Positions 1,635 through 50,368 of a stretch of 64,000 nucleotides of DNA are shown in pieces. Within the stretch, counting starts at the first letter, position 1. Every line of letters begins with the position of its first letter. Where the stretch lies: positions 128,001 to 192,000 of the forward strand of contig CAVVOP010000020.1 of the NCBI GenBank assembly GCA_963749915.1, given 5' to 3'. The notes under the pieces are model-generated. The model saw only the letters and a list, made by a program, of their open reading frames with translations, was not told where the DNA came from and did no database searches. This DNA comes from an uncultured cyanobacterium (GTDB lineage Bacteria; Cyanobacteriota; Cyanobacteriia; Cyanobacteriales; Cyanobacteriaceae). The position numbers were made by a program, and so were the translations under genes.

Positions 1635-1669
1635 ATTTACAGTGAGGCTAGCCCAATTTTGCGACCAAG

Positions 1670-1704
1670 AAAAAAAGGCCAACCAAAATTAATTGATTAG
1701 CCCT
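1670..1704 (-). terminator. Intrinsic terminator of the ycf46/ycf35 operon
   Basis: Minus strand GGGCTAATCAA...TTGGTTGGCC followed by T-run, just after the ycf35 stop. Confidence 0.65.
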
Positions 1705-1740
1705 AAAAATTGGGAACGCACTTTCAGAAAATAGATTCCA

Positions 1741-2091
1741 TTACTTGAGAACTAACTTGACGTTAGCGTTTTGTAACCCACGTTGCTTAACTTCGCCCAA
1801 AGTTTTATTAACCGCATATTTTTGATTAATGGAGTTAATTAACTCAGTTTGATTATGTTTTTTAGCAACGCCCCAGAGATCCGCGATCAAGTCAAAGCTA
1901 CCGTCTGTATTGCGAGACCAACCGAGATCGTATTCTCCTTCTAAAACAGCTACTATATCAGCACGAAGACGTTGACCATTATAGCCACGAACATCAGCAT
2001 CAGTTTTGACACTAATACCGAGATCACGCAAGGAACCAGTTAAAATTTCCGCAGAAGTGATTTTGGTGCGTAAGGTACTGAAATGAGACAT
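1741..2091 (-). CDS. ycf35: DUF1257 / Ycf35 family protein
   Basis: MSHFSTLRTKI...VRGYNGQ...FDLIADLW signature; downstream of ycf46. Confidence 0.85.
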   Translation of the reverse strand: MSHFSTLRTKITSAEILTGSLRDLGISVKTDADVRGYNGQRLRADIVAVLEGEYDLGWSRNTDGSFDLIADLWGVAKKHNQTELINSINQKYAVNKTLGEVKQRGLQNANVKLVLK

Positions 2092-2209
2092 TGGTATTTC
2101 CTCCTAAGAGATTAAAGACAACTTTTTGATTTTAAGATGCACATAAAGTGCTTTTCATTCAACTGTTAGCCCTTAAGCTAACCTTTCTCCAAAAATGAGA
2201 GAAAGACTG

Positions 2210-3730
2210 TTAAAACGACCTGCGTTGATATTCCTCAACGGAGGCTGACCCAGGTCTAGCTCGTTGTCGAGCCCAGTCTCGTAGCGCTGTGACCTGTTCT
2301 GTCATCGTACGGGACAGAGGTAGTGTCGATTTGACGGCAGCAATGATGTCCAACTGTGTAAACTCTCGCCCTTGGGCAAAAGCCTCGTACATAGCGGCAA
2401 CAATGGCCTGTTCAATCTCTGCCCCGGAAAAACCTTCTGAGACCTTGGCTAATTGTTCTAAGTCAAAACGACCGATATCGGAACGACGTTTGCCAAGATG
2501 AATATTGAAAATCGCTTCTCGCTCTTGCCCACTGGGCAAATCCACAAAAAAGATCTCATCAAAACGACCTTTTCGCAAAAACTCCCCTGGTAATTTTTCT
2601 AAACGGTTAGCGGTCGCCATCACAAACACAGGAGAATTTTTTTCTTGCATCCATGTCAGGAATGAACCGAAAATTCGACTAGATGTCCCACCATCAGAAT
2701 CACTGGAACCAGCACCACCGGCAAAAGCCTTGTCTAATTCATCGATGAATAATATTGCCGGAGAAATGGATTCCGCCGTTTTCAAAGCACTGCGCAGATT
2801 TGCTTCCGATTTCCCTACCGTTGAGCCGTCATAGACTCTACCCATATCCAACCGTAGTAAGGGCAATCCCCATAACTTGGAGGTCGTCTTCGCAATTAAA
2901 GACTTTCCACAACCGGGAACCCCTAAAATTAGCATTCCTTTGGGTTGGGGTAAGCCATAGGCTCTGGCTTTTTCCGTGAAGGCTTCCGAACGTTGGGTTA
3001 ACCAGTGTTTTAGCTCTTCTAAACCCCCTACTGCATTGATAGTTTCGTCTTCTTCAATATAATCAAGGATGCCATTACGCCGAATTAGTTGTTTTTTCTC
3101 AGAAAGGACGATTTCAACTTCATTTTCTGTTAATTGTCCCCCTTTGATCTGAGCTTTACGATAAACTTTTTCCGCTTCATCGATAGTTAAACCAAGGGCG
3201 GCCCTGCGCAATTTCTCTTTGACTTGCGGTTGAAGTTGCTTGCTTTTAGTTTTCTTTAATGCCCTTTCCAATACCTGATCTAGCTCATGGGCCTGAGGCA
3301 GAGGAAAGTCCAACACCACTAAATCTTTTTCTAGTTCTAAAGGTGTTTGCTGATAGGGTGACATCAAGACAATTATTTTATCTGTTCCCTTAAAACTAGC
3401 AATGGCATCTCTCAACCATCTTGTTACCGGGGGCGATTCTAAATAAGGATGTAAGTCTTTGAAGATGTAAATCCCCGCCTCTTTTTGTCTGACAACCCAC
3501 TCAATGGCCGCTTCGGGGGAAACCGTGTTGTGTTGTACAGAGGTCGAATTTTGTTGACTGCATTCAACGATTCCACGGGTTACTGTCCACACAAATAGCC
3601 GACGAGATCCCTGATTAGGTAATTCATTCAATATAGTCCCAATGGCTTCCTCTGCACGTTCTTCTTCCGAAGTCACTAGGTAAATCAAGGGATATTGAGC
3701 TTTGATAAGAATGTTTAACTCTTCTTTCAT
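2210..3730 (-). CDS. ycf46: Ycf46-family AAA+ ATPase
   Basis: Walker A GVPGCGKS, Walker B ILFIDE, SRH PGEFLRKGRFDE; start moved to MKEELN (GAGG RBS; avoids overlap with the upstream gene). Confidence 0.9.
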   Translation of the reverse strand: MKEELNILIKAQYPLIYLVTSEEERAEEAIGTILNELPNQGSRRLFVWTVTRGIVECSQQNSTSVQHNTVSPEAAIEWVVRQKEAGIYIFKDLHPYLESPPVTRWLRDAIASFKGTDKIIVLMSPYQQTPLELEKDLVVLDFPLPQAHELDQVLERALKKTKSKQLQPQVKEKLRRAALGLTIDEAEKVYRKAQIKGGQLTENEVEIVLSEKKQLIRRNGILDYIEEDETINAVGGLEELKHWLTQRSEAFTEKARAYGLPQPKGMLILGVPGCGKSLIAKTTSKLWGLPLLRLDMGRVYDGSTVGKSEANLRSALKTAESISPAILFIDELDKAFAGGAGSSDSDGGTSSRIFGSFLTWMQEKNSPVFVMATANRLEKLPGEFLRKGRFDEIFFVDLPSGQEREAIFNIHLGKRRSDIGRFDLEQLAKVSEGFSGAEIEQAIVAAMYEAFAQGREFTQLDIIAAVKSTLPLSRTMTEQVTALRDWARQRARPGSASVEEYQRRSF

Positions 3731-3789
3731 GGGATCGACCTCTATTTTGCTTAGGCAGTTACTGTAATCGCTAACATGACTGTCACCAT

Positions 3790-4134
3790 TTAGCAAGGGA
3801 TTAACTCTTCTTGTCCTTGAGTCCCTGCAATGATCTCTGTTTTTTCACCGATCAGGGGAAACTCTTCATCAACGATACTGGGTTGATTTTTGAGAGAAAT
3901 CATCTCCCCGTCACGCATCACCATTGCGGCACTACATTCGGGGCAAACGTGGACTTGATGAGTTTTTCCGTAACTCGCTTCTAATTCCTCTACCACTTCG
4001 GGATGTTTCAAGTAGAAGCTGAGGGCTCTTTCGACAAGTGCTGACATAGAATCAGTATCGATGGCCGCTTTTACTTTCAACTGACGATGCAGTGTTGGTG
4101 GAAGATAAAGAGTAACTTTTTGCTTTTCTTGCAT
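3790..4134 (-). CDS. Conserved cyanobacterial protein (Slr0373-like) with N-terminal ribbon-helix-helix-like region and CxxC
   Basis: KQKVTLYLPPTLHRQLKVKAA, CPEC; first gene of the three-gene ycf46 operon. Confidence 0.8.
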   Translation of the reverse strand: MQEKQKVTLYLPPTLHRQLKVKAAIDTDSMSALVERALSFYLKHPEVVEELEASYGKTHQVHVCPECSAAMVMRDGEMISLKNQPSIVDEEFPLIGEKTEIIAGTQGQEELIPC

Positions 4135-4173
4135 ATTCGCTGTTATTTGATATGCCCGGGTGCGATATTGATT

Positions 4174-4202
4174 AATTTAACTCTTTTTTTTTCCACTGTC
4201 AA
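4174..4202 (-). promoter_or_regulatory. Sigma70-type promoter of the ycf46 operon
   Basis: Minus strand TTGACA (4202-4197), 17 bp spacer, TAAATT (4179-4174). Confidence 0.6.
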
Positions 4203-4343
4203 GCGGTCATCCCGTTTTAATGGTAATATTGTTACAAAACTTAATAAATGAAATTTTAGAAAGATGGTTGTTTTCTTTATAACCTATATTCGGCAGGTTA
4301 TGTTCGGAATGAGTTATTTATAGAGAGTTCTATATCCAAAGTA

Positions 4344-5258
4344 CTATTCTAATGTGATAATTGTGCCGCGATCGCCCCTTAAAATTTCCGCGACATCTTG
4401 CAACTGACCAATTGCCGCCATACCCATCGTCGTAGTCTTAGCCTTGACAAAATTACAAGCCGCTTCGACCTTCGGTTGCATCGAGCCAGGAGCGAAGCTA
4501 TACTTGCTTAACTGCTGTGGAGTTATTGTGGAAATTGGTTGGGCTTCTGGAGTACCCCAGTTATGGTAAACCGCATCCACATCAGTCAATAGCAGTAAGG
4601 CATCCGCCTGTAAATCCTTTGCCAGTAATGCTGTAGCTAAATCTTTATCGATAACGGCTTCAATGCCACAAATACTCCCTGCCGGAGTAACAACAACGGG
4701 TATACCACCACCGCCGGCACAGATGACCAATGCTCCCACTTTTACCAATAACCGGATTGTTGGTAATTCCAGAATGCGCTTGGGTTTGGGAGAGGGGACA
4801 ACGCGGCGATAGCCATTGCCATCGGGGGCCACTGCCCAACCTCTTTCTTTCGCTAAATGTTTAGCTTCCGTCTCTGAATAAACTGAACCAATGGGTTTAG
4901 TAGGACAAGCAAAAGCAGGATCCTCAGGGTTTACTTCGATCTGGGTGAGGAGAGTGACTATTTGTTTTTCTGGTAGTTGATTGCAGAGTTCTTGTTCGAT
5001 TAGATAACCGATCGCCCCTTCTGTCTCCGCATCTAGTACATCTAGGGGATAGGGCTTGACGCCCTTGTAGGCTTCGGCTTGCATTGCTAAAAGTCCCACC
5101 TGGGGTCCATTACCGTGGGTAACTACCACCTGATGTTCTCTAGCAACAACAGCGATGGCTTTGGCTGCCAGCTGAATATTTTGTCGCTGTATTTCTACTT
5201 CTGGAGGTTGACCACGCCTAATTAGGGCATTACCCCCCAAGGCAATAACTACGAGCAT
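4344..5258 (-). CDS. arcC: Carbamate kinase
   Basis: VIALGGNAL, THGNGPQVG, PTKPIG, YRRVVPSP, GGGGIPV, EAVIDKD, GSMxPKVEAA. Confidence 0.95.
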   Translation of the reverse strand: MLVVIALGGNALIRRGQPPEVEIQRQNIQLAAKAIAVVAREHQVVVTHGNGPQVGLLAMQAEAYKGVKPYPLDVLDAETEGAIGYLIEQELCNQLPEKQIVTLLTQIEVNPEDPAFACPTKPIGSVYSETEAKHLAKERGWAVAPDGNGYRRVVPSPKPKRILELPTIRLLVKVGALVICAGGGGIPVVVTPAGSICGIEAVIDKDLATALLAKDLQADALLLLTDVDAVYHNWGTPEAQPISTITPQQLSKYSFAPGSMQPKVEAACNFVKAKTTTMGMAAIGQLQDVAEILRGDRGTIITLE

Positions 5259-5264
5259 GATCGT

Positions 5265-6623
5265 CTATCCTCCCAAGTTTTTACGGGCGAGAAATTGCTC
5301 TATTTCGGCGGATAATCTCGGTTCTCCTCTCTCAGCAAATTCATAGTGGGCGCGGACCACTGGCTTATTAAGTGTCATCAGAGAACTAAGATCGCTGGGA
5401 GTGGCTGCCACTACTACGTCAGCTTCGGCATTGTTAATGGTATCCTCCAATGCTTTTAGTTGGGCGGGAAAATAACCCATGGCTGGCAATACCGGGCCGA
5501 TGTGGGGATAGCGGGCATAAACTTCGGCAATTTCTGGAGCAGCAGAAGCTCTGGGATCGACAATTGCTGCAGCGTGGGCACGAATAGCAGCTACATAGCC
5601 TGCACCATAGGACATGCCACCATGAGTGGTAGTCGGACCGTCCTCTACTACTAACACGCGACGATGGCACACTGCTTCTGGATTGTCCAACTGGATTGGG
5701 GAGGCACCACGAACAATCACTGCTTGGGGATTAACCTTCTTCACTGTATCGCTAACTCTCTGTATGTCAGCATCAGCTGCCGAATCCACTTTCGCAATAA
5801 TGACAATGTCTGCCATCCGCAACACGACTTCCCCTGGGTGGTGAGTAGTTTCATGTCCAGGACGCAATGGATCGACTAAAACAAGGTGTAGATCGGGTTG
5901 AATGAAAGGAAAGTCATTATTACCGCCGTCCCAGAGGATAATATCTGCTTCTTGTTCTGCTTTCTGGACGATTAACCCATAATCGACTCCAGCATAGACT
6001 ATGTTACCAACCGCTAGATGGGGTTCGTATTCTTCCCGTTCCTCAATTGTACACTCGGCTACATCTAAATCTCCTTTAGTCGCAAACCGTTGTACAATTT
6101 GCTTTTCTAAATCCCCGTAAGGCATGGGGTGACGGATAACTGCTACTCGCAAACCTTTTTCTCGCAGTAGCTTAGAAAGCCAACGGGTAGTTTGAGACTT
6201 ACCACAACCAGTCCGCACCGCAGAAACAGCGATTACTGGTACTTGGGCTGGTAGCATGGTTCGTTTGGGACCTAAAAGTAAGAAATCTGCACCCGCTACC
6301 ATTGCTCGCGATGCGAAATGCATCACTTGGGAGTGAGTCAGATCGCTATAAGCAAAGACCACAAAATCTATTTGCTCTCGACGACAAAGAGATTCTAATT
6401 CTGTTTCCTCAACAATAGGAATACCTTGAGGATAAAGGGAACCCGCTAGCACACAAGGATAGCGGCGATTCGCAATGCCCGAAATTTGTGCTGCGGTAAA
6501 AGCCACCACTTCCACTTCTTTGTCATGGCGGTATACCTGATTGAAATTGTGAAAATCTCGACCTGCTGCCCCCATAATGACAATTCTAGAAGGGGATCGA
6601 GCAGTACTACTTGGCGATCGCAT
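5265..6623 (-). CDS. arcE: Arginine synthetase (ArcE)-like P-loop protein; often annotated as cyclic 2,3-diphosphoglycerate synthase-like GTPase
   Basis: IMGAAGRDFHNFN, AVRTGCGKSQT, RHPMPYGDL, CTIEEREEYEP, WDGGNND, EDGPTxTHGGM; 6 bp upstream of arcC; start set at the ATG after GGAGG. Confidence 0.75.
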   Translation of the reverse strand: MRSPSSTARSPSRIVIMGAAGRDFHNFNQVYRHDKEVEVVAFTAAQISGIANRRYPCVLAGSLYPQGIPIVEETELESLCRREQIDFVVFAYSDLTHSQVMHFASRAMVAGADFLLLGPKRTMLPAQVPVIAVSAVRTGCGKSQTTRWLSKLLREKGLRVAVIRHPMPYGDLEKQIVQRFATKGDLDVAECTIEEREEYEPHLAVGNIVYAGVDYGLIVQKAEQEADIILWDGGNNDFPFIQPDLHLVLVDPLRPGHETTHHPGEVVLRMADIVIIAKVDSAADADIQRVSDTVKKVNPQAVIVRGASPIQLDNPEAVCHRRVLVVEDGPTTTHGGMSYGAGYVAAIRAHAAAIVDPRASAAPEIAEVYARYPHIGPVLPAMGYFPAQLKALEDTINNAEADVVVAATPSDLSSLMTLNKPVVRAHYEFAERGEPRLSAEIEQFLARKNLGG

Positions 6624-6871
6624 TTGACCCTCCATAAAATATATCCTTATAATCCTTTTATTTGTCGTCTTAACAGTTCGTTTTCATTTACTAAGAGCTT
6701 GGGTTCTAAGTCATTGCGCTCACTTTTAACAAAGGTTGTCCAGACCTAACCATTATACCATTTCTTTAAATAGTATTGGTTCCCTTGCCGTGAACAAATC
6801 TATCCTCATCCATGCCTATTTCTCCCATCCGTCTTGCCTCTTTTCTAACTTCAAAAGAAAAAAGAGCTTTT

Positions 6872-9118
6872 TTAGTATTCTTGGGCTTCTACTACGGCGA
6901 TCGCCGTCATATTAACAATGGAGCGAATATCACAATCTTTTTGTAAAACATGAACTGATTTTTTCATCCCCATTAAAATTGGTCCTATGGTTTGAGAACC
7001 ACCTAATTCCTGTAATAGTTTATAGGCAATATTGCCTGAATTAAGATCGGGAAAAATGAGAATATTCGCATCACCTTTAATCGCTGAAAAAGGATAATTT
7101 TCTTGGACAATATTAGGATTGACCGCCGTATCAGCCTGCATTTCTCCATCAATAATTAAGTCCGGTTGACGTTTTTTAACAAGGTTGATCGCATCTTTAA
7201 CTTTATTACTCAAAGGATGAGGGGCACTGCCAAAATCAGAAAAGGAAAGCATGGCAACACGAGGTTGTAAGTTTAATCTTTGGGCTAATCTGGCACTTTC
7301 AATGGCAATATCCGCTAAAATTTCTGCCGTGGGATTAATATTTACCGTCGTATCCGCAAAAAGGTAGACCCGACGTTTTAATAACATAATATATAAACCG
7401 GAAACATATTTAATATCAGGACGAGTACCGATAATTCGTAAAGCCGGGCGAATGGTATCGGGATAGGCTTGAGTTAAGCCGGACACCAAACCATCAGCAT
7501 CCCCTAAATGTAGCATTAATGAACCGAAAATATTAGGCTTAAGGATTTCTTTTCGTGCTTGTTGTAAAGTCATCCCTTTTCTTTGTCTGAGGTTAAATAA
7601 TTCTTGAATATAAAGATCACTGTGAGAAGCCGTAGCTGGATCTACAATACTCAGATCAGGCAAATGTAAACCTAATTCACCAATTTTTGCTTTGATCTGA
7701 GCTTCTGAGCCGATTAAAATGGGTTGGGCAATCTTTTCTTCCATTAAGATTTGACAAGCAGTGAGAATTTTATTCTGATCTCCTTCTGGGAAGACAATTC
7801 TTTTCGGTGCTGTTTTAGCTTTATGAATAGCTTGGCGGATAATTTCTTGATCTACACCCATCCGTTTTTCAAGGGTTTCTTGATATTGCTCAAGGTTTAA
7901 GGTAATACGGGCAACTCCCGTATCCATGGCGGCTTTTGCTACTGCTGGGGTCACCCAAAATAAAACCCGATTATCAAAGGGTTTGGGAATGAAATATTCT
8001 CGCCCGAAGGCTAAATTTTTTAGTCCATAGGCTCTTAAAACGGAGTAAGGTACATCTTGTCTCGTTAAATTAACTAAAGCCCCAACAGCAGCTATTTTCA
8101 TGGCTTCATTAATTTCTGTTGCTCTTACATCTAACGCACCTCGGAAAATAAAAGGAAAACCCAACACATTATTAACTTGGTTGGGATAGTCAGATCTTCC
8201 TGTAGCAATAATGAGATCACTACGGGTTGCTTTAGCTAGATGATATTCAATTTCTGGATCGGGGTTAGCTAGGGCAAAGACGATGGGATTAACCGCCATT
8301 GATTTTACCATTGCCGGAGTTAAAATATCTTTGATGGATAAACCAATAAAAACATCTGCTCCTGCTATGGCCTCAGCTAAAGTTCGAGCCTTGGTATCAT
8401 TAGCAAACTGAACTTTGTACGGGTTCAGATGCTCTGTTCTTCCTTGATAAATAACTCCCATGCGATCGCACATGATTAAGTTTTCTCTTTTTACCCCTAA
8501 AGTTAAATGGAGTTTTGCACAGGCGATCGCAGCGGCACCTGCCCCACTATAAACTACCTTCACCTGATCAATTTTTTTCTGTGCCACTTCCAAGGCATTA
8601 ATTAAGGCAGCTCCGGTAATAATTGCTGTACCATGTTGATCATCATGAAAGACAGGAATTTTCATTTTTTGTCTCAGTTGTTCTTCAACATAAAAACTAT
8701 CGGGAGCTTTAATATCCTCTAAATTAATCCCACCAAAAGTAGGCTCAAGGCATTTAACCGTATTAATAAATTCTTCGAGATCTTCGCTCTGAATTTCTAA
8801 ATCAAAAACATTAATATCGGCAAATCGTTTAAATAAAACCGCTTTCCCCTCCATCACGGGTTTAGCCGCCAAAGCTCCTATATTACCTAGTCCTAAAACG
8901 GCTGTACCATTTGTCACCACCGCCACTAAATTGCCCTTTGTGGTGTAATCATAAACCTTTTTTGGGTCTTGGTGAATTTGACGACAGGGTTCAGCCACCC
9001 CCGGAGTATAAGCAAGGGCTAGATCTCTTTGAGTAGTAAAGGGTTTAGTGGCATTTACTTCTAATTTTCCGGGGCGATCGTATTGGTGATAGTGGAGGGA
9101 ATCTTCGGATAGGGACAT
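6872..9118 (-). CDS. maeB: NADP-dependent malic enzyme with C-terminal phosphotransacetylase-like domain
   Basis: [35 protein letters not shown], then KRIVFPEG...DGEMQAD PTA-like domain. Confidence 0.93.
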
Positions 9119-41579: not shown

Positions 41580-44072
41580 TTAAGAAAAAGGCAGATGAAA
41601 AAACCATTGATTCAACCGTCTTAAACCACGGGTTACATAGACGGGGCGAGTATGGTTAAAAACTCCGTAGGCTCGCTGTTTCACCCAGTCGGCAATCAAA
41701 AACCAGATTAATCCATAGGCCCAGACAACTCCTGCTAAACCCCATCCAAGCGGGGTCATGAAGATGCCATACACCGCAATCAGAGTGGCCAGGACTTGGG
41801 TACCCAGGACGGCTGCCAGCAAAATTCGGGCTGGTTTAATCGACCAGAAAGGCCCCTTGGTGCGGGTCACGAAGATGGTGAGATGTCCGGCGACCGACAG
41901 CTTCAGGTAAATCAACGTTTGCAAAAGGCTGCGATCGAGGTGAAAAACTCGCTCCCCCAGATATAACATCCCAAAGGAGCTGACTACACCAGTGAGACCC
42001 AGAATGGTTGCCAACCCCAGGACGACGGGCATATTCCAGGTTTCGGGGCCCTGGGCGGGACGAGTGCGATCATAGGCAATGGAGATAATGGCACCATCAT
42101 TTAATAGAGCCAGCAGCACGATCATGATGGCGGTCACGGGATAGAAGTTGTAGACCAGAATGGAGAAGGTCATGAACAACAAAACCCGAATGGTTTCTGC
42201 GATCCGGTAAATGGCGTAGTTATTCATGCGCTGAAAGATGCGGCGACTTTCCTGAATCGCCTCCACAATCACGCCAAGTCCTGGGGTGAGCAAGACAATA
42301 TCGGCAGCGGCACGGGCGGCATCGGTGGCTCCTGAAACGGCAATCCCGGCATCGGCTTTCTTGAGGGCAGGGGCATCATTGACTCCATCGCCCGCCATGG
42401 CTATGATGTGACCTCGTTGCTGTAAGACCTCCACGATATGGTATTTATGTTCAGGAAAGACCTGCGCAAACCCGGCGGCAGCTTCGATCGCCTCGGCAAC
42501 CTGTCCGGCTTGGTGGGGAGCGGCTTTTTCTAGCAGGCTGGCATCGAGGATGTCTCCTTTTAGTCCCAGTTGATGGGCAGTTTCGCGGGCGATCGCCTGT
42601 TGATCTCCCGTCAACATTTTCAGGTCAATTCCCAGCTTTTTCACTGCCTGAATCATCAGTTGGGAGTCGGTGCGGGGTGGGTCATATAGTGGCAGTACGC
42701 CCAAAAATTGCCAGTTCCCGGAATCGTCAGTCCGGGCAACCCCCAGGGATCTAAATCCACGTTGGGCAAACTCTGCGATCGCCTGATTCACCTGAGGCTG
42801 CACTTGAGCGACATTTTTTGAGAGCGCCAGAATCACTTGGGTTGCCCCTTTGGTCACTTTAAAGCGAGCGCGATCGGCGGTTTCAACGGTGGCTTCCGTG
42901 CGTTTGCCCACCGGGTCAAAGGGCTGGAAATGGATAATTCGATAGGCATCCAGAGATTGGTCAGGCTTCAGTCCCGTGAAGATTGCCAGATCGATGGGGT
43001 CGCCGTCTTCATCCCGAGACGCCAGGGCGGCGTTGAGGATTAGCGATTCTGGAGCGGTATTACCCACACAGAATGGCTCTCCTAGGGTTAACTGGTTGAG
43101 GGTTAAGGTGCCCGTTTTGTCGGAACAGAGAATGTCAATGCCAGCCATCTCTTCGATCGCCGCTAGCCGACTGACGATGGCGTCCTTTTTTGCCAACCGT
43201 TGGGCACCGACGGCCATCGTCACCGACAGCACCGTGGGCATAGCTACGGGGATGGAGGCCACCGTTAACACCAAGACAAACCGCAGGGTCGTCAGCCAGG
43301 GATCGCCCCGAAACAGCGCCACCATGAACACCAGCACCACCAGCACCAGGGCAATCACGATCAGGTAGTCGCCGATTTTCAATACCGCTCGTTGAAAGTG
43401 GCTGACCGTCTGGGCAGATTCCACCAGGCGGGCGGTTTTACCCATGTAAGTCCGAGCGCCCGTGGCATAGACAATGCCATCCAGTTCGCCCTGCTTCAGG
43501 ATGGAACTCGAATACAGCACGCCTCCCACCTGGCATTCTACGGGGAGCGATTCCCCCGTCAACGCCGACTGGTCAACCTGCGCCGGATCTCCTGCTAAAA
43601 ACCGCACATCTGCTGGCACAATATCCCCCAGACGCAGCCGGATCAGATCGCCAGCCACCAGTTCGCGGGCTGGAATTGTCGTCCAAGTGTCGTCTCGCTT
43701 GACCTTGGCTTGGAGTGCCAGTTTCGCTTTGAGTGCGGCGATGGCATTGCCCGCCTGAAATTCCTCCCAAAACCCCACCACGCCGTTGGCGATCAGCAGG
43801 GCTAGAATCAAGCCAAAATCGACCCAGTCTTCCACCAGAGCCGAGAGGATCACCGCCGCCTCAATCATCCAAGGGATCGGTCCCCAAAAGTGCGACAGAA
43901 ACCGCATCAGCGGGCTGACGGTGGTTTCGGGTAACTGGTTATAGCCATCTTGCGATAGTCGCTGGTGGGCCCCCGTCTGGCTCAATCCTTGAGGGGACGT
44001 GCCTAATTGCTTTTGTAGGTCTTCTAACGATAGATGCGAAAGTGTTTCTGGATCGGCAGATCTAGTCATCAT
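41580..44072 (-). CDS. Plasma-membrane proton-efflux P-type ATPase (P3A)
   Basis: FWGPIPWMIE, TGES, IPVAMP, CSDKTGT, PFDPV.KRT, GDGVNDAPALK, ALLNDG. Confidence 0.93.
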   Translation of the reverse strand: MMTRSADPETLSHLSLEDLQKQLGTSPQGLSQTGAHQRLSQDGYNQLPETTVSPLMRFLSHFWGPIPWMIEAAVILSALVEDWVDFGLILALLIANGVVGFWEEFQAGNAIAALKAKLALQAKVKRDDTWTTIPARELVAGDLIRLRLGDIVPADVRFLAGDPAQVDQSALTGESLPVECQVGGVLYSSSILKQGELDGIVYATGARTYMGKTARLVESAQTVSHFQRAVLKIGDYLIVIALVLVVLVFMVALFRGDPWLTTLRFVLVLTVASIPVAMPTVLSVTMAVGAQRLAKKDAIVSRLAAIEEMAGIDILCSDKTGTLTLNQLTLGEPFCVGNTAPESLILNAALASRDEDGDPIDLAIFTGLKPDQSLDAYRIIHFQPFDPVGKRTEATVETADRARFKVTKGATQVILALSKNVAQVQPQVNQAIAEFAQRGFRSLGVARTDDSGNWQFLGVLPLYDPPRTDSQLMIQAVKKLGIDLKMLTGDQQAIARETAHQLGLKGDILDASLLEKAAPHQAGQVAEAIEAAAGFAQVFPEHKYHIVEVLQQRGHIIAMAGDGVNDAPALKKADAGIAVSGATDAARAAADIVLLTPGLGVIVEAIQESRRIFQRMNNYAIYRIAETIRVLLFMTFSILVYNFYPVTAIMIVLLALLNDGAIISIAYDRTRPAQGPETWNMPVVLGLATILGLTGVVSSFGMLYLGERVFHLDRSLLQTLIYLKLSVAGHLTIFVTRTKGPFWSIKPARILLAAVLGTQVLATLIAVYGIFMTPLGWGLAGVVWAYGLIWFLIADWVKQRAYGVFNHTRPVYVTRGLRRLNQWFFHLPFS

Positions 44073-44142
44073 TATGACTCCTTTACTGGCAAATTATGGA
44101 AAAACGATATATGGAGTATTCAGCCGTCAGCTACCAGCAAAT

Positions 44143-44985
44143 CTAGTCAAGGGAAAGTATGACCACTTTTCTAGCTAAACCTAGTTTCTTGAGGATGGAA
44201 ATTGCCCACCAAGTCATATCAATTTCCCACCATTTCCATCCTGCTTTAGCAACATTTGGATGAGCGTGGTGATTATTATGCCAACCTTCTCCATAGGTAA
44301 GAATGGCTGCCCACCAAAGGTTACGGGAGTTATCTTCGGTATTGAATGTACGGTAGCCTGTGATGTGGGCAGCAGAATTAATCAACCAAGTGCTGTGCCA
44401 GAGCAAGACGGATCTTAAGAACAGACCGTAGATCACGAACGACCATCCTCCGAGCAGATATAGCAAGATTCCTAGCGGTAGCTGGAGGAGTAGGTAGTAA
44501 CGGTTTAACCAGCGATAGAATGGCTGTCGCTCCAAATCAGGAGCAGATTTTTTATAAATATCGTAGTTAAAAAATTCTGGGCGATCATATAAGAGCCAGA
44601 GTACATGACTCCACCAAAAACCTCGTTTGGCAGAATATGGATCTTTGTCCTTATCTTCCGTATAAGCATGGTGCATTCGGTGTCCAGCTACCCAGAAAAT
44701 TGGACCACCTTGCAATGCCAGCGTGCCAACAATAGCGATCGCATATTCCAGTCCTTTCGATAACTGCAAACTATGGTGAGTCAACAGGCGATGATACCCA
44801 AGACAAATACCAATGCTGCCTAACAACCAATGTAGAAATATGGCAACCCCCAGAGCAGACCAGGAAAAGAACCAGGGAGCTAGGAGAGCGATCACATGAA
44901 CGGCACTGAAAAAACCTACTACCGTCCAATTTAGTGCCAGTGGTTGCCCACCTTCAGGGGAAATTTTAAGTGAACGAGAAGTCAT
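44143..44985 (-). CDS. Delta-9 acyl-lipid desaturase (DesC-like)
   Basis: His boxes HRLLTH, HRMHH, WHNNHH. Confidence 0.9.
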   Translation of the reverse strand: MTSRSLKISPEGGQPLALNWTVVGFFSAVHVIALLAPWFFSWSALGVAIFLHWLLGSIGICLGYHRLLTHHSLQLSKGLEYAIAIVGTLALQGGPIFWVAGHRMHHAYTEDKDKDPYSAKRGFWWSHVLWLLYDRPEFFNYDIYKKSAPDLERQPFYRWLNRYYLLLQLPLGILLYLLGGWSFVIYGLFLRSVLLWHSTWLINSAAHITGYRTFNTEDNSRNLWWAAILTYGEGWHNNHHAHPNVAKAGWKWWEIDMTWWAISILKKLGLARKVVILSLD

Positions 44986-45051
44986 ACCAGTCCTCCTTAT
45001 AAAAAAAAGTTGCGTTCCTTACAGGATTTATTTATTGAATTTGAAAACTGT

Positions 45052-46839
45052 TTATTGAGAAAAGATCAGCACACTGTAGGGTCCAATGGAAAGCGTCCCA
45101 TGCCAAGGAAGCCCATCATAGGCACCCGACTCGGCGATGACGTCAGTGCTGGGATGGTTTTTGAAATCGTCATTATAGCCCTGCCAATCGCTGTTGAAAC
45201 GGAGCTTCCAGGTTCCTGCTGCCGGGAAACCGATGAGGTAGCCATCCTGCGCGTCACGGAAGAAGTTGGCAACGACCACAACATCATCCGCCGATCCGCC
45301 CTTGTCCCAGCGATGGAAAGCGATGACCTTGCGGTCTTCGTCCAGATGATAGACCTCGGTGAACTGTCCGCAGAGTCCACGGGTGAAGCCCTCGAGGTTG
45401 AGCCGCAACCGGATGAGGTCACGGTATAGCCGAACGATGCCATGAAACTCGTCCCGTTGGTCCCAATCGACGGGGACTGTGTCGCGGAACCATCCTCCTT
45501 CGAGGAATTCCTGACCTTGGAAAAGCATGGGGATACCCGGGGCGGTGAAGACCATCGCGGCGGCCAGTGTCGAACGTTTCCTTGCATACCAGCCCTTGGG
45601 GTCGTTCGGGCTGATCTCTTGTGGTACGCGGGAGCTACCATTCGCCACTGCATCGTGGGATTCGCTGTAGATGACCCGGTCGAAAGCATCATCGTTGTAC
45701 CGGTAGCAGATGGCATCGCGGATGGCGGCAAGGGAGCGTTGCTCGTCTTGGGAAGAGATCACCGCCTGGCGGATGGGATGGACGAACATGGCATCCCACT
45801 GAGAGCTGAACCCAGCCCCACCTGCGCCAACATCCTTGGTGAGCCATCTGTTGTTTTGAAGATCTTCCGCGATCGTGATCCGGCCGGGGAATTTCTCTGC
45901 TACCTCGCTATTGATCCACTGGAGCAGACTCCAGCCATCAGGCAAGTCCCGATCTTTAGAGCCGTCCACCGTGTGAATGAATTGGGTCGCATCGAAGCGA
46001 AAGCCATCAACGTGGTATTCATTGAGCCACATCAAGATGTTATCAACAAGGTATTGACGAACCTCGCCACGTCCGTAATCGGGTCTGGTTTCTCCCCAGG
46101 GCGTGTGGGCCCGATCATCGTTGTAGAAGTAGATTCCACCGCGATCGTTCTCGCACCAGCCGTCAAACTGCCAAAGATCGAGGTCGCTGGGTCCTAGGTG
46201 GTTGTAAACAACGTCTAGGATCACCGCAATGCCCTCCTGGTGAGCTCGCTTGACGAACTGCTTAAACGCCAACGGACCTCCGTAGGTGATCTCCACCGAG
46301 AAGATATGGGCGGGGTTGTAACCCCAAGACCAGTCTCCCGCAAACTCGCCTATTGGCATGATCTGGATCGCATTGATGCCCAGTTTTTTCAAATGTCCTA
46401 GACGGGTTGATATTGAGGGGAACTTGCCTGGACGGTTAATATCCTCTTGATCGTTGAACGTGCCGACATGAAGTTCGTAGATGGCCAGTTCGTTCCATGA
46501 GGCGATATGGAAGTCATCCCCTTGCCAGTCAAAGCTCGGATCGTGAACGATCGCGTTTCCGACCGAGTTGGTCACCTCGCGGGCATAGGGGTCAATGCGC
46601 TTGAACTCGCCCCTCGGCGTGGACAGAAAGAACCGATACTGATCCCCAGCTTTAGCCTCGGCTATGTTGACGTACCAGTAACCGTTCTCTTCGGCTTGCA
46701 TGGGGTGCTTGGTATCTTCCCAGTCGTTGAAAGAGCCGATGACGGATACTCCCTGTGCATGGGGTGCCCACACGCGGAAAGCTACTCCTTGGGTGTGGAG
46801 AATTGATCCCATTCCCTTAATCTTGGTTTCATCGCTCAT
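45052..46839 (-). CDS. GH13 alpha-amylase-family enzyme with CBM48 (glucan branching enzyme / maltooligosyltrehalose hydrolase-like)
   Basis: FRVWAPHA, IYELHVGTF, WGYNP, DVVYNH, DGFRFDA, IAED, ESHD; start at MSDETK after GGAGG. Confidence 0.88.
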   Translation of the reverse strand: MSDETKIKGMGSILHTQGVAFRVWAPHAQGVSVIGSFNDWEDTKHPMQAEENGYWYVNIAEAKAGDQYRFFLSTPRGEFKRIDPYAREVTNSVGNAIVHDPSFDWQGDDFHIASWNELAIYELHVGTFNDQEDINRPGKFPSISTRLGHLKKLGINAIQIMPIGEFAGDWSWGYNPAHIFSVEITYGGPLAFKQFVKRAHQEGIAVILDVVYNHLGPSDLDLWQFDGWCENDRGGIYFYNDDRAHTPWGETRPDYGRGEVRQYLVDNILMWLNEYHVDGFRFDATQFIHTVDGSKDRDLPDGWSLLQWINSEVAEKFPGRITIAEDLQNNRWLTKDVGAGGAGFSSQWDAMFVHPIRQAVISSQDEQRSLAAIRDAICYRYNDDAFDRVIYSESHDAVANGSSRVPQEISPNDPKGWYARKRSTLAAAMVFTAPGIPMLFQGQEFLEGGWFRDTVPVDWDQRDEFHGIVRLYRDLIRLRLNLEGFTRGLCGQFTEVYHLDEDRKVIAFHRWDKGGSADDVVVVANFFRDAQDGYLIGFPAAGTWKLRFNSDWQGYNDDFKNHPSTDVIAESGAYDGLPWHGTLSIGPYSVLIFSQ

Positions 46840-46956
46840 GGTTGGTTCCTCCATTACAAAGATTATCCGATAAGTTTGGCGATGGTGAAATTCGCCGGCA
46901 CGGCTCCGGTGCACGTACCGCTTGAACCGGTTGAGCAGTCAGGCTCTCGGAATGGA

Positions 46957-47148
46957 TCACTTACCGATACGAATTCCCCGGAGAAAACTAAGCAATCCGA
47001 ACACCTTAAGAATCCACAAAATGAGGGCGACGACAACCACAATGTTCAAGATTTGCTTGATCTTGCTGTCCATCGGAATGTAGTTGTTCACGAGCCACAA
47101 TAGAACCCCAACTACGATGATAACGACCACAAACTGGACTAAATCCAT
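46957..47148 (-). CDS. Small two-TM membrane protein (Thivi_2564-like)
   Basis: GVLLWLVN.YIPMD..IK.ILN.VVV; GGAGG RBS. Confidence 0.8.
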   Translation of the reverse strand: MDLVQFVVVIIVVGVLLWLVNNYIPMDSKIKQILNIVVVVALILWILKVFGLLSFLRGIRIGK

Positions 47149-47273
47149 GACTAACCTCCTTTCTATTATCTAATGAGTGGTGACTTGAACTAAATAGCTA
47201 TAGTATTCGTTAAGCATTTTATTTTCTCCATGATCAATTATTCTGGTTTCATCGCTTCGACCTTGTTTACCTC

Positions 47274-47969
47274 CTATAGGACCGTTCCGAACAGAGCCCC
47301 TACAGCAGCAGTCAGCCCCATCGCCAGCACACCCCAAAAGGCAATTCGAACAGCCGATTTCATCACTGGCGCTCCACCTGCACGGGCAGCTAGTACCCCC
47401 AATGCAGTGAGAAAGATGAGAGAGTTCCCAAATACAACGGGCACCAATCTCGATTCGGGCGCTACCAGCACGGTGAGAAGCGGCATAGCTGCACCCACAG
47501 CAAACGCGCCTGCCGATGCCAGTGCCGCTTGCACTGGTCGAGCTGCCAAGCTCTCGGAGATAGCCAGTTCATCACGTGCGTGTGCACCTAATGCGTCATG
47601 AGCCATCAACTGCTTGGCAACTTGTTTTGCTAACAAAGGATCGAGGCCACGATCCACATAGATTGCAGCCAGTTCCTCCCGCTCGGATTGTTCGTCGATA
47701 TTGAGTTCTTTCCGTTCACGGGAAAGGTCAGCTTTCTCGGTATCAGCTTGTGAACTGACCGATACATATTCCCCAGCCGCCATGGACATTGCCCCAGCTA
47801 CCAGGCCAGCCACCCCAGCCACTAAGACTTCGCTGCGAGACCCGTGGGCTGCTGCCACCCCAACGACAAGGCTTGCCGTTGAAACAATGCCGTCGTTTGC
47901 ACCCAAAACTGCGGCACGTAGCCAGCCGATTCGTCCCGTACGATGTCGTTCTTTATGGCTTCTGGGCAT
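47274..47969 (-). CDS. VIT1/CCC1 family Fe/Mn transporter
   Basis: LRAAVLGANDGIVS, SMAAGEYVSVSSQ. Confidence 0.93.
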   Translation of the reverse strand: MPRSHKERHRTGRIGWLRAAVLGANDGIVSTASLVVGVAAAHGSRSEVLVAGVAGLVAGAMSMAAGEYVSVSSQADTEKADLSRERKELNIDEQSEREELAAIYVDRGLDPLLAKQVAKQLMAHDALGAHARDELAISESLAARPVQAALASAGAFAVGAAMPLLTVLVAPESRLVPVVFGNSLIFLTALGVLAARAGGAPVMKSAVRIAFWGVLAMGLTAAVGALFGTVL

Positions 47970-49386: not shown

Positions 49387-50250
49387 CTACTGTCTTTCAA
49401 CTTCTGCCTCCTTTTTAGGATTGCTATCCTTTAAATCGGTTGATTGAGAGAAAATGGGCTTGCGAGTTTTCAAGTTAAAGCGGAATCCTTGAGGTAAGAT
49501 GTGCAACCTGACTCCACACACCGCCATCGCTTCATCTTTGAGCAGTTCGCCTAAATTATCATAAGTTGCCTCTGATTCATCGACAACTGTTACAGCCCCA
49601 CGCCCCACCACTTTAAATTCGTTACCGTCCACAATTACTGCTGTATCTTCGTCAATGCCAAAACCTAAGTTAGCTGGCTGCTGTAAGAGAGCGGAAATCA
49701 GGCGACCTAACCGTCCGCGCTGAGCAAAATGCTGATCGATCACCACTGAGTGCAAAAACCCCATTCCCGACCCCATTTCTATCGCGTCCAAGCGTGGATT
49801 GGTTTCGGAGTCTCCTTCAACAATCATAAAATCGGGCATTATGGCAGCACCTGCACTCGTACCACCGATCACCATTCCTTCCCGATTGCGTTGGTGCAGT
49901 AAGGTATCTAGCTTAATTCCCTTGATGTATTCAATGATATTGGCTTGATCTCCTCCTGTAAAAAACACTCCTGTGGCTTCTTCAATAATTTTCAGTTTTT
50001 CTGGATCATCCGCATCTTCCCTGTGAATGGTATTGACAACACGCACATCCTCGACACCAAGCCGTTCAAACACTCGGGTATAGTCTTCTCCAGACTCACG
50101 AGGCTCGCTTGTTGCCGCCGTTAACACGGCAATTTTAGCTTGAGTCCCACCAGCACAGCGAACAAACTCTCGCAAGATTTCACAATCTTCTTCTTTGTCT
50201 TCTGCTCCACCAATGATGACTAATTGCCCCCGCTCTTTTGTGGATTCCAT
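49387..50250 (-). CDS. cphB: Cyanophycinase (peptidase S51)
   Basis: LVIIGGAEDK, FFTGGDQ, GGTSAGA, DQHF.QRGR.GRL, GIDEDT; start at MESTK after AGGAG. Confidence 0.88.
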   Translation of the reverse strand: MESTKERGQLVIIGGAEDKEEDCEILREFVRCAGGTQAKIAVLTAATSEPRESGEDYTRVFERLGVEDVRVVNTIHREDADDPEKLKIIEEATGVFFTGGDQANIIEYIKGIKLDTLLHQRNREGMVIGGTSAGAAIMPDFMIVEGDSETNPRLDAIEMGSGMGFLHSVVIDQHFAQRGRLGRLISALLQQPANLGFGIDEDTAVIVDGNEFKVVGRGAVTVVDESEATYDNLGELLKDEAMAVCGVRLHILPQGFRFNLKTRKPIFSQSTDLKDSNPKKEAEVERQ

Positions 50251-50368
50251 ACAAAAACTCCTTGAATAACTAAACAGCACAAAAACAGAAATTGTAACCG
50301 TTCACATTCCCCCTAACCCTCGACGAGAAATGAATAGTTTCGGCAAATTGACAGGGGGAATGAAATAA

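Follow-up and report, generated by a model that had tools for sequence, protein, structure and literature searches.

An ArcE-type arginine synthetase gene paired with a carbamate kinase gene in an uncultured cyanobacterium: a candidate ATP-yielding route of arginine breakdown

Many cyanobacteria store their nitrogen mainly as arginine, in the form of cyanophycin, and the breakdown of arginine in this phylum is currently described via ArgZ/AgrE, i.e. without ATP yield. ArgZ forms ornithine in a direct way that involves neither citrulline nor carbamoyl phosphate and yields no ATP, and the first step of the arginine deiminase pathway is hydrolytic and does not yield ATP either. We analyzed a pair of genes, arcE and arcC, on a stretch of 64,000 nt from an uncultured cyanobacterium of the family Cyanobacteriaceae (assembly GCA_963749915.1, contig CAVVOP010000020.1, positions 128,001 to 192,000 of the forward strand), and this whole stretch is called “the window” in the following. 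It is quite probable that the product of the gene at 5265-6623 forms citrulline, ammonia and ATP from arginine, ADP and phosphate, and that the product of the adjacent arcC makes a second ATP from the carbamoyl phosphate released by the argF product.

The closest described system is the ArcE-ArcB-ArcC pathway of Thermococcus kodakarensis. TK2200 of this species was reported to be the arginine synthetase ArcE, which catalyzes the reaction Arg + ADP + Pi <-> citrulline + NH3 + ATP with K = 10.1 and ΔG0′ = −6.8 kJ/mol at 80 °C (Michimori, Yokooji, Atomi 2024, PMC11032458). The arginine deiminase pathway (arcA-arcB-arcC) shares the last two steps, i.e. citrulline phosphorolysis by ornithine carbamoyltransferase (OTC) and the carbamate kinase reaction (PMC11032458 and established knowledge), and it needs arcA. 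Michimori et al. name cyanobacteria, e.g. Synechocystis, among the holders of arcE; the text of their supplementary information (SI) contains no sequences and no cyanobacterial names (PMC11032458). The name ArcE is also used for the arginine/ornithine exchanger of the deiminase pathway (PMC5300872), and this double use causes confusion in text searches.

Judged by its sequence, the protein encoded at 5265-6623 on the minus strand belongs to the ArcE arginine synthetase family, as the initial annotation had proposed from its motifs. In a gapless alignment of 435 aa it shares 60% identity with a protein that is itself identical to “GTPase [Pyrococcus furiosus DSM 3638]” (locus L090; 556 bits, reported E value 0.0). 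An identity of 60%, over 437 aa, is also found with a protein of Thermococcus eurythermalis, a member of a 201-member cluster (90% level) of Thermococcus and Palaeococcus proteins. The published definition of an ArcE homolog is a BLASTP E value <1e-100 and a length >380 aa, with Thermococcales homologs of cyclic 2,3-diphosphoglycerate synthetase (cDPGS) as the outgroup (SI of PMC11032458). The window protein, with 452 aa, lies within these limits when it is compared via the Thermococcales proxies. All five motifs named initially (GAAGRDFHNFN, RTGCGKSQT, CTIEEREEYEP, DGGNND, and EDGPT.THGG) are present in its translation, form conserved columns in an alignment of 26 family sequences, and recur in the P. 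furiosus protein, and the Walker-A-like RTGCGKS is conserved across that alignment. The gapless identity, the motifs and the placement in the tree described below all bear out the proposed family assignment.

Pfam and NCBIfam contain no curated ArcE model, and the protein gives weak P-loop matches in these collections (cobW, hypB, lpxK). Among clusters at 50% identity, the family has 3406 representatives with E<=1e-3, of which 572 reach E<=1e-30, and at least 595 family loci are present among species genomes. In the class that holds a Methanofastidiosia-labelled genome, one strong match was found in 117 of the 121 genomes, many of which have a second, weak match. In the Pyrococcus-type genome, this weak second match is a true cDPGS (PDB 9sxb, E 6.5e-158), and it aligns with the window protein at 23% identity over 117 aa (46 bits, BLASTP). 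A maximum-likelihood tree of 48 rows separates the six cDPGS from the 42 ArcE-type proteins with an SH-aLRT support of 100 and a branch of 2.7 changes per site, and it places the window protein on the ArcE side, within a cyanobacterial clade (support 98-99). The phylogenetic comparison with cDPGS, suggested initially as a check, was thus in favor of ArcE.

The AlphaFold2 (AF2) model of the arcE product has a P-loop fold (pLDDT 93.1), and its best fold matches in the PDB are cDPGS (E 6e-17, 12% identity), LpxK 4EHY (E 6e-10), and HypB. The predicted structure is compatible with a P-loop NTPase fold with an LpxK-like nucleotide pocket; a likeness of ArcE to LpxK has been reported and was used to guess the nucleotide cofactor (PMC11032458). 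By sequence, the best PDB match is cDPGS as well, with an E value of 9e-4 over only 84 aa (phmmer), and the window protein has no full-length similarity to solved or verified cDPGS. Structural alignments with cDPGS (PDB 8ORK, 8ORU, 9SXB) give 12-13% identity and a TM of 0.45. The two proteins thus share a distantly related P-loop fold, whereas cDPGS and ArcE form distinct clades and coexist as paralogs in archaeal genomes.

NCBI records call ArcE-type proteins “cyclic 2,3-diphosphoglycerate synthase” or “GTPase” (P0004, P0015, P0286, P0288, P0291, P0418, and others). The misnamed set includes proteins of Thermococcus and Pyrococcus, whose genomes have a separate true cDPGS. Because the ArcE-type proteins of Thermococcales also bear the cDPGS name, it is a label of the whole family, and both names are family-wide misnomers, by which the pathway is hidden from metabolic reconstructions.

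The features of the locus, and one further gene of the window that is relevant for arginine storage, are as follows:

4344..5258, minus strand: arcC, carbamate kinase, 304 aa (two curated models)
5265..6623, minus strand: arcE-type gene of the arginine synthetase family; 452 aa with the ATG at 6623 as the start (open reading frame (ORF) call)
5268..5273, minus strand: GGAGGA within the final arcE codons, 9 nt ahead of the arcC start, putative role in coupled translation (direct sequence reading)
6629..6633, minus strand: GGAGG, Shine-Dalgarno-like, 5 nt ahead of the ATG at 6623, putative function (direct sequence reading)
6752..6760, minus strand: TGGTATAAT, candidate extended −10 element (own sequence reading)
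49387-50280, minus strand: cyanophycinase (TIGR02069, 327.8 bits, cut-off 126.6)

The product of arcC exceeds the curated equivalog cut-offs of two carbamate kinase models (NF009008, 471.1 bits, cut-off 361; TIGR00746, 373.2 bits, cut-off 358.25), and the gene is the sole arcC of the genome. Both genes lie on the minus strand and are separated by a spacer of 6 nt (5259-5264), so that the ORF coordinates and the curated kinase models agree with the initial description of an ORF 6 bp upstream of a carbamate kinase gene. The first in-frame ATG of arcE is at 6635, which would give an ORF of 456 aa (5265..6635, minus strand). The second in-frame ATG, at 6623, which is the end position given initially, is the likelier start because it is preceded by the GGAGG at 6633-6629. 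The GGAGGA inside the end of arcE precedes the ATG of arcC, which suggests that the translation of the two genes is coupled, and they are presumably co-transcribed. The candidate extended −10 element TGGTATAAT is located in the spacer of 236 nt between the malic enzyme gene and arcE. A consensus promoter scan did not report this element at 6760-6752, for which there is no fitting −35 element; the scan yielded five sites versus 5.3 expected, none of them on the minus strand upstream of arcE. The gene upstream of the pair encodes a malic enzyme with a PTA domain, and a slr0373-family gene and an AAA+ ATPase gene lie downstream.

An OTC gene is not present in the window, which is part of contig C20. 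The genome has two carbamoyltransferase matches, located on contigs C8 and C11; its one argF is that on contig C8 (418 bits, cut-off 281), in agreement with the initial assumption that OTC is supplied from elsewhere. The search of the genome for arcA, argF and argZ that had been proposed together with it gave the following picture. No arcA was found in the genome, the best match to TIGR01078 having 20.3 bits (cut-off 489.1) and lying inside the ArgZ gene. The bifunctional ArgZ itself is present (705 aa, NF052231, 1381.5 bits); it also consumes arginine, and its fold is unrelated to that of ArcE. The genome contains argG, and it has carbamate kinase and OTC without arginine deiminase, i.e. the gene content of an ArcE-pathway genome. 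Cyanophycin metabolism is represented by a cyanophycin synthetase gene (cphA) on contig C17, and by two cyanophycinase genes (cphB), one in the window and the other on contig C5.

The locus resembles the T. kodakarensis pathway in the protein family, the motifs and the LpxK-like P-loop fold of the model, and in the presence of carbamate kinase and OTC without arginine deiminase. In contrast to T. kodakarensis, the host is a mesophilic oxygenic phototroph that has a complete arginine synthesis (argG), ArgZ, and cyanophycin. Furthermore, arcE and arcC are adjacent in the window, whereas arcE has no arcC or OTC within 1.5 kb in 29 of 29 Thermococci-class loci.

A second system for comparison is found in Synechocystis sp. 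PCC 6803. The proteins of locus L131 are identical to “carbamate kinase [Synechocystis sp. PCC 6803]” (308 aa) and “sll0572 [Synechocystis sp. PCC 6803]”. As in the window, arcE is followed by arcC on one strand (sll0572-sll0573), and no arcA was found in either of the two genomes. The window ArcE is 65% identical to Sll0572 over 439 aa, and the carbamate kinases share 66% identity over 299 aa. In Synechocystis the two genes overlap by 14 nt, whereas the window pair has the 6-nt spacer, and the window arcE lies on a Pleurocapsales/Xenococcaceae-like branch of the cyanobacterial clade, not on the Synechocystis branch. As it is the single match in that genome, sll0572 is presumably the Synechocystis homolog meant by Michimori et al. 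(PMC11032458).

The carbamate kinase gene sll0573 was described as the only one among 24 cyanobacteria, its transcript was strongly elevated in arginine-grown cells, and Sll1336 was taken as its deiminase partner (Schriek et al. 2007, PMC2242806). Sll0572 has been detected as a protein and was labelled “potential GTPase” in a proteomics paper of 2025 (PMC12454622). In our literature searches, no experimental study of a cyanobacterial ArcE was found. Sll1336 was later reassigned as ArgZ, which would leave the Synechocystis carbamate kinase without a partner. The initial statement that model cyanobacteria degrade arginine mainly via ArgZ/AgrE with no ATP gain follows the current descriptions, but it is not quite right, because PCC 6803 carries the same arcE-arcC pair. 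The novelty implied initially was also overstated, as cyanobacterial holders of arcE had already been named (PMC11032458) and the pair is present in PCC 6803.

For the proposed route, the reaction of the window ArcE is deduced by analogy with the characterized T. kodakarensis enzyme. ArcE would cleave the guanidino group of arginine by phosphorolysis and transfer the phosphate to ADP, yielding citrulline, ammonia and ATP. The argF product (contig C8) would convert citrulline and phosphate into ornithine and carbamoyl phosphate, from which ArcC would form the second ATP, so that the total would be two ATP per arginine. The direction of the pair is presumably catabolic, and the arginine is likely derived from cyanophycin, for which the genome encodes the synthetase and two cyanophycinases. 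The dependence of the T. kodakarensis enzyme on ADP is sigmoidal and, together with the values of K and ΔG0′ given above (PMC11032458), this suggests that the route would run when ADP accumulates, which in a phototroph would be the case in darkness or anoxia.

To characterize the linkage of arcE and arcC, 80 named loci, drawn from numerous phyla of bacteria and archaea, were surveyed within a range of 4 kb. Near arcE, arcC was found at 16 loci, OTC at eight loci, either of the two at 17 loci, and both at seven loci, and the prevailing order at linked loci is arcE-arcC(-arcB). A natural fusion protein of metagenomic origin (P0125, 766 aa) consists of a carbamate kinase (residues 3-309) and an ArcE-type part (residues 320-753); it scores 313.8 bits with NF009007 (cut-off 266), and its ArcE-type part and the window protein share 49% identity.

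Within the phylum, 301 cyanobacterial genomes (G000 included) were sampled, with thresholds of E<=1e-20 for ArcE and E<=1e-40 for arcC. An ArcE-type gene is present in 14 and arcC in 10 of the 301 genomes, and all 10 holders of arcC also hold ArcE. An arcA above the cut-off was found in none of the 13 other cyanobacterial ArcE holders. At cyanobacterial loci without arcC, the neighbors of arcE are uninformative (methyltransferase, glutathione S-transferase (GST), a glycosyltransferase-like gene, glyoxalase, and peptidase M16).

In the family of the window organism, arcE was found in none of six other sampled genomes (two of its genus, all at least 99% complete) and arcC in none of the five of them examined. 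Because the sampled relatives have neither gene, the pair is regarded as accessory. In the tree, the window ArcE is part of a set of seven rows (support 99) together with proteins of Xenococcaceae (91% identical), Prochloraceae, Pleurocapsales, Myxosarcina, Cyanothece, and one sampled genome of another family. The ArcE proteins of family f30 (L133, L134, L135) group with the Pyrococcus protein (support 96), apart from the other cyanobacterial ones, suggesting that the f30 lineage gained arcE separately. This would fit an accessory pair that was probably moved laterally and that arose at least twice in the phylum; multiple losses are a possible alternative.

Five family genomes share with the window only the region of about 1660-4262, which ends just before arcC. 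This block contains a 116-aa ORF of no family, the AAA+ ATPase gene, and the slr0373-family blue-light stress gene; its DNA identity in the five relatives is 74-81%. The relatives were considered as carriers of a clean empty site, but this was rejected, since on both sides of the block their sequence departs from that of the window, and for the same reason no insertion scar is readable.

Two further cyanobacterial loci deserve mention in their own right. One genome with an intact arcE-arcC pair contains a second, fragmentary copy (L138, G268:C41:7464-11042), which retains residues 18-72 and 266-456 of ArcE and a stretch of 34 residues of ArcC, and which is probably a decayed duplicate. In the nearest GTDB relative (L125, G350), the arcE-arcC pair is preceded upstream, at a distance of about 0.9 kb and on the same strand, by a gene for a class-III aminotransferase (3737-4336, minus strand), which may be an ornithine aminotransferase.

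The initial annotation had described the pair as part of a GC-richer block, and the GC contents of arcE and arcC are indeed 0.482 and 0.484, compared with 0.395 for the window. The excess lies in codon positions 1 and 2. The values for the third codon position (GC3) are 0.377 and 0.408, compared with a mean of 0.334 (sd 0.10, 34 ORFs), which corresponds to z values of 0.4-0.7. The excess therefore reflects the amino-acid make-up, and there is no foreign codon signature. Foreign composition as a proof of transfer was rejected, because GC3 is only 0.4-0.7 sd away from that of the window ORFs. A leader RNA or riboswitch at this locus was also considered and rejected, because Rfam gave no match at E<=1 in the region 4100-7000 and no conserved leader was seen in the upstream regions of nine cyanobacterial arcE genes, which have a mean column identity of 38% and are conserved within one genus only.

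Sediment metagenome runs from three studies contain the stretch, with shares of 0.27-0.81. In one sediment metatranscriptome run (X7), four contigs matched, two of which are exactly identical to arcE (5961-6180 and 6536-6647), while stretches not covered by contigs carry no information in this analysis. These contigs are a weak hint that arcE is transcribed; it counts against a stronger statement that contigs of RNA libraries can hold DNA.

Several further observations weigh against the proposed explanation, and three of them, the reversibility of the reaction, the presence of ArgZ and the ArcE holders that lack arcC, against a simple role of the pair in energy conservation. Neither arcC nor OTC lies beside arcE at 63 of the 80 diverse loci, at 7 of the 11 full-length cyanobacterial loci, and, with flanks of 1.5 kb, at any of the 29 Thermococci-class loci. 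Four of the 14 cyanobacterial ArcE holders (G190, G292, G244, and G304) have no arcC, and the co-occurrence counts stem from related genomes, so that they are not independent. The comparison with TK2200 runs via close, named proxies from Pyrococcus and Thermococcus. TK2200 is the sole characterized enzyme of the family, works at 80 °C, and its reaction is reversible and near equilibrium, with a ΔG0′ of −6.8 kJ/mol (PMC11032458). Lastly, ArgZ is a competing sink for arginine in the same genome.

The alternative that survives best, although we consider it unlikely, is that the route mobilizes nitrogen and carbon skeletons from stored arginine and that ATP is a by-product. It would deliver two ammonia together with ornithine as a precursor of proline or glutamate, or else carbamoyl phosphate as a pyrimidine precursor. 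This would fit with results for T. kodakarensis, in which arcE and arcB, and not arcC, are required for pyrimidine-free growth (PMC13260591) and ArcE supplies ornithine for proline (PMC11032458). It would also fit with the four cyanobacterial ArcE holders that lack arcC, and with the class-III aminotransferase gene upstream of arcE-arcC in L125. However, arcC follows arcE after 6 bp in the window and has its putative ribosome-binding site inside arcE, which points to the burning of carbamoyl phosphate, and ornithine and ammonia are already available from ArgZ. Mobilization and the preferred ATP-yielding breakdown do not exclude one another.

We regard it as improbable that the pair is mainly synthetic. 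In that case carbamate kinase would form carbamoyl phosphate from ammonia and CO2, the argF product would form citrulline, and ArcE would fix a second ammonia to yield arginine at the expense of one ATP. Where ammonium abounds, arginine and cyanophycin would then be made from it at low cost. ArcE is reversible and supported arginine synthesis in vivo when T. kodakarensis was given citrulline and ammonium (PMC11032458), and both the cyanophycin synthetase gene and the occurrence of the stretch in sediment metagenomes are compatible with synthesis. However, argG is already present in the genome, a Ks of 3.7 mM has been reported for ammonia, the equilibrium is on the side of citrulline and ATP, and the sigmoidal response to ADP suits a catabolic role at low energy (PMC11032458). 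In addition, the carbamate kinase gene of Synechocystis is induced, not repressed, by arginine (PMC2242806).

A shifted substrate, i.e. an ArcE-family enzyme that acts on another guanidino or ureido compound, is very unlikely. Published substrate-binding residues of ArcE, with which the window protein could be compared, do not exist; however, the identity of 60% to the Thermococcales proteins without a single gap and the linkage of arcE with arcC and OTC in many phyla argue against such a shift, and no amidinotransferase gene adjoins the pair among the window ORFs and their family matches. The reading as a cDPGS that makes a compatible solute has the NCBI names of close relatives and the top PDB matches on its side, but it can be given practically no weight, since the same name is put on the Thermococcales ArcE-type proteins and the archaeal genomes in question encode the true cDPGS as a paralog of its own, split off with a support of 100.

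Elsewhere in the window, the ORFs of a block at 41580-47969 (minus strand) have GC contents of 0.55-0.56 and GC3 values of 0.62-0.65, compared with the window mean of 0.334 (z about 3). The block contains a proton-efflux P-type ATPase of the plasma-membrane type (TIGR01647, 1018 bits, cut-off 615.5), a GH13 enzyme that resembles GlgB and TreZ without reaching their cut-offs, a desaturase-like ORF whose GC3 is ordinary, and a 231-aa ORF of no family. It looks like a laterally acquired island.

The ArcE family and its cyanobacterial homologs were known before, and the window pair adds another member. What the analysis adds is that carbamate kinase is strictly nested within the ArcE holders among the sampled cyanobacteria, that sll0572-sll0573 is the same pair, that the pair is accessory in this lineage, that a natural ArcC-ArcE fusion exists, and that the whole family is misnamed as cDPGS.

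On a broader scale, and as a tentative proposal, ArcE, OTC, and carbamate kinase may form a laterally mobile fermentative module in benthic cyanobacteria, which would use cyanophycin as an ATP store for the night or for anoxia, gain two ATP from each arginine through substrate-level phosphorylation, and be switched on as ADP accumulates. If true, such a module would explain why carbamate kinase in cyanobacteria occurs only alongside ArcE, and it would provide a role for the long-orphan, arginine-induced carbamate kinase of Synechocystis. The idea is open to direct testing in Synechocystis PCC 6803, which holds sll0572-sll0573. Compared with the breakdown of arginine via ArgZ/AgrE, the ArcE-OTC-carbamate kinase route would add substrate-level phosphorylation from the cyanophycin store.

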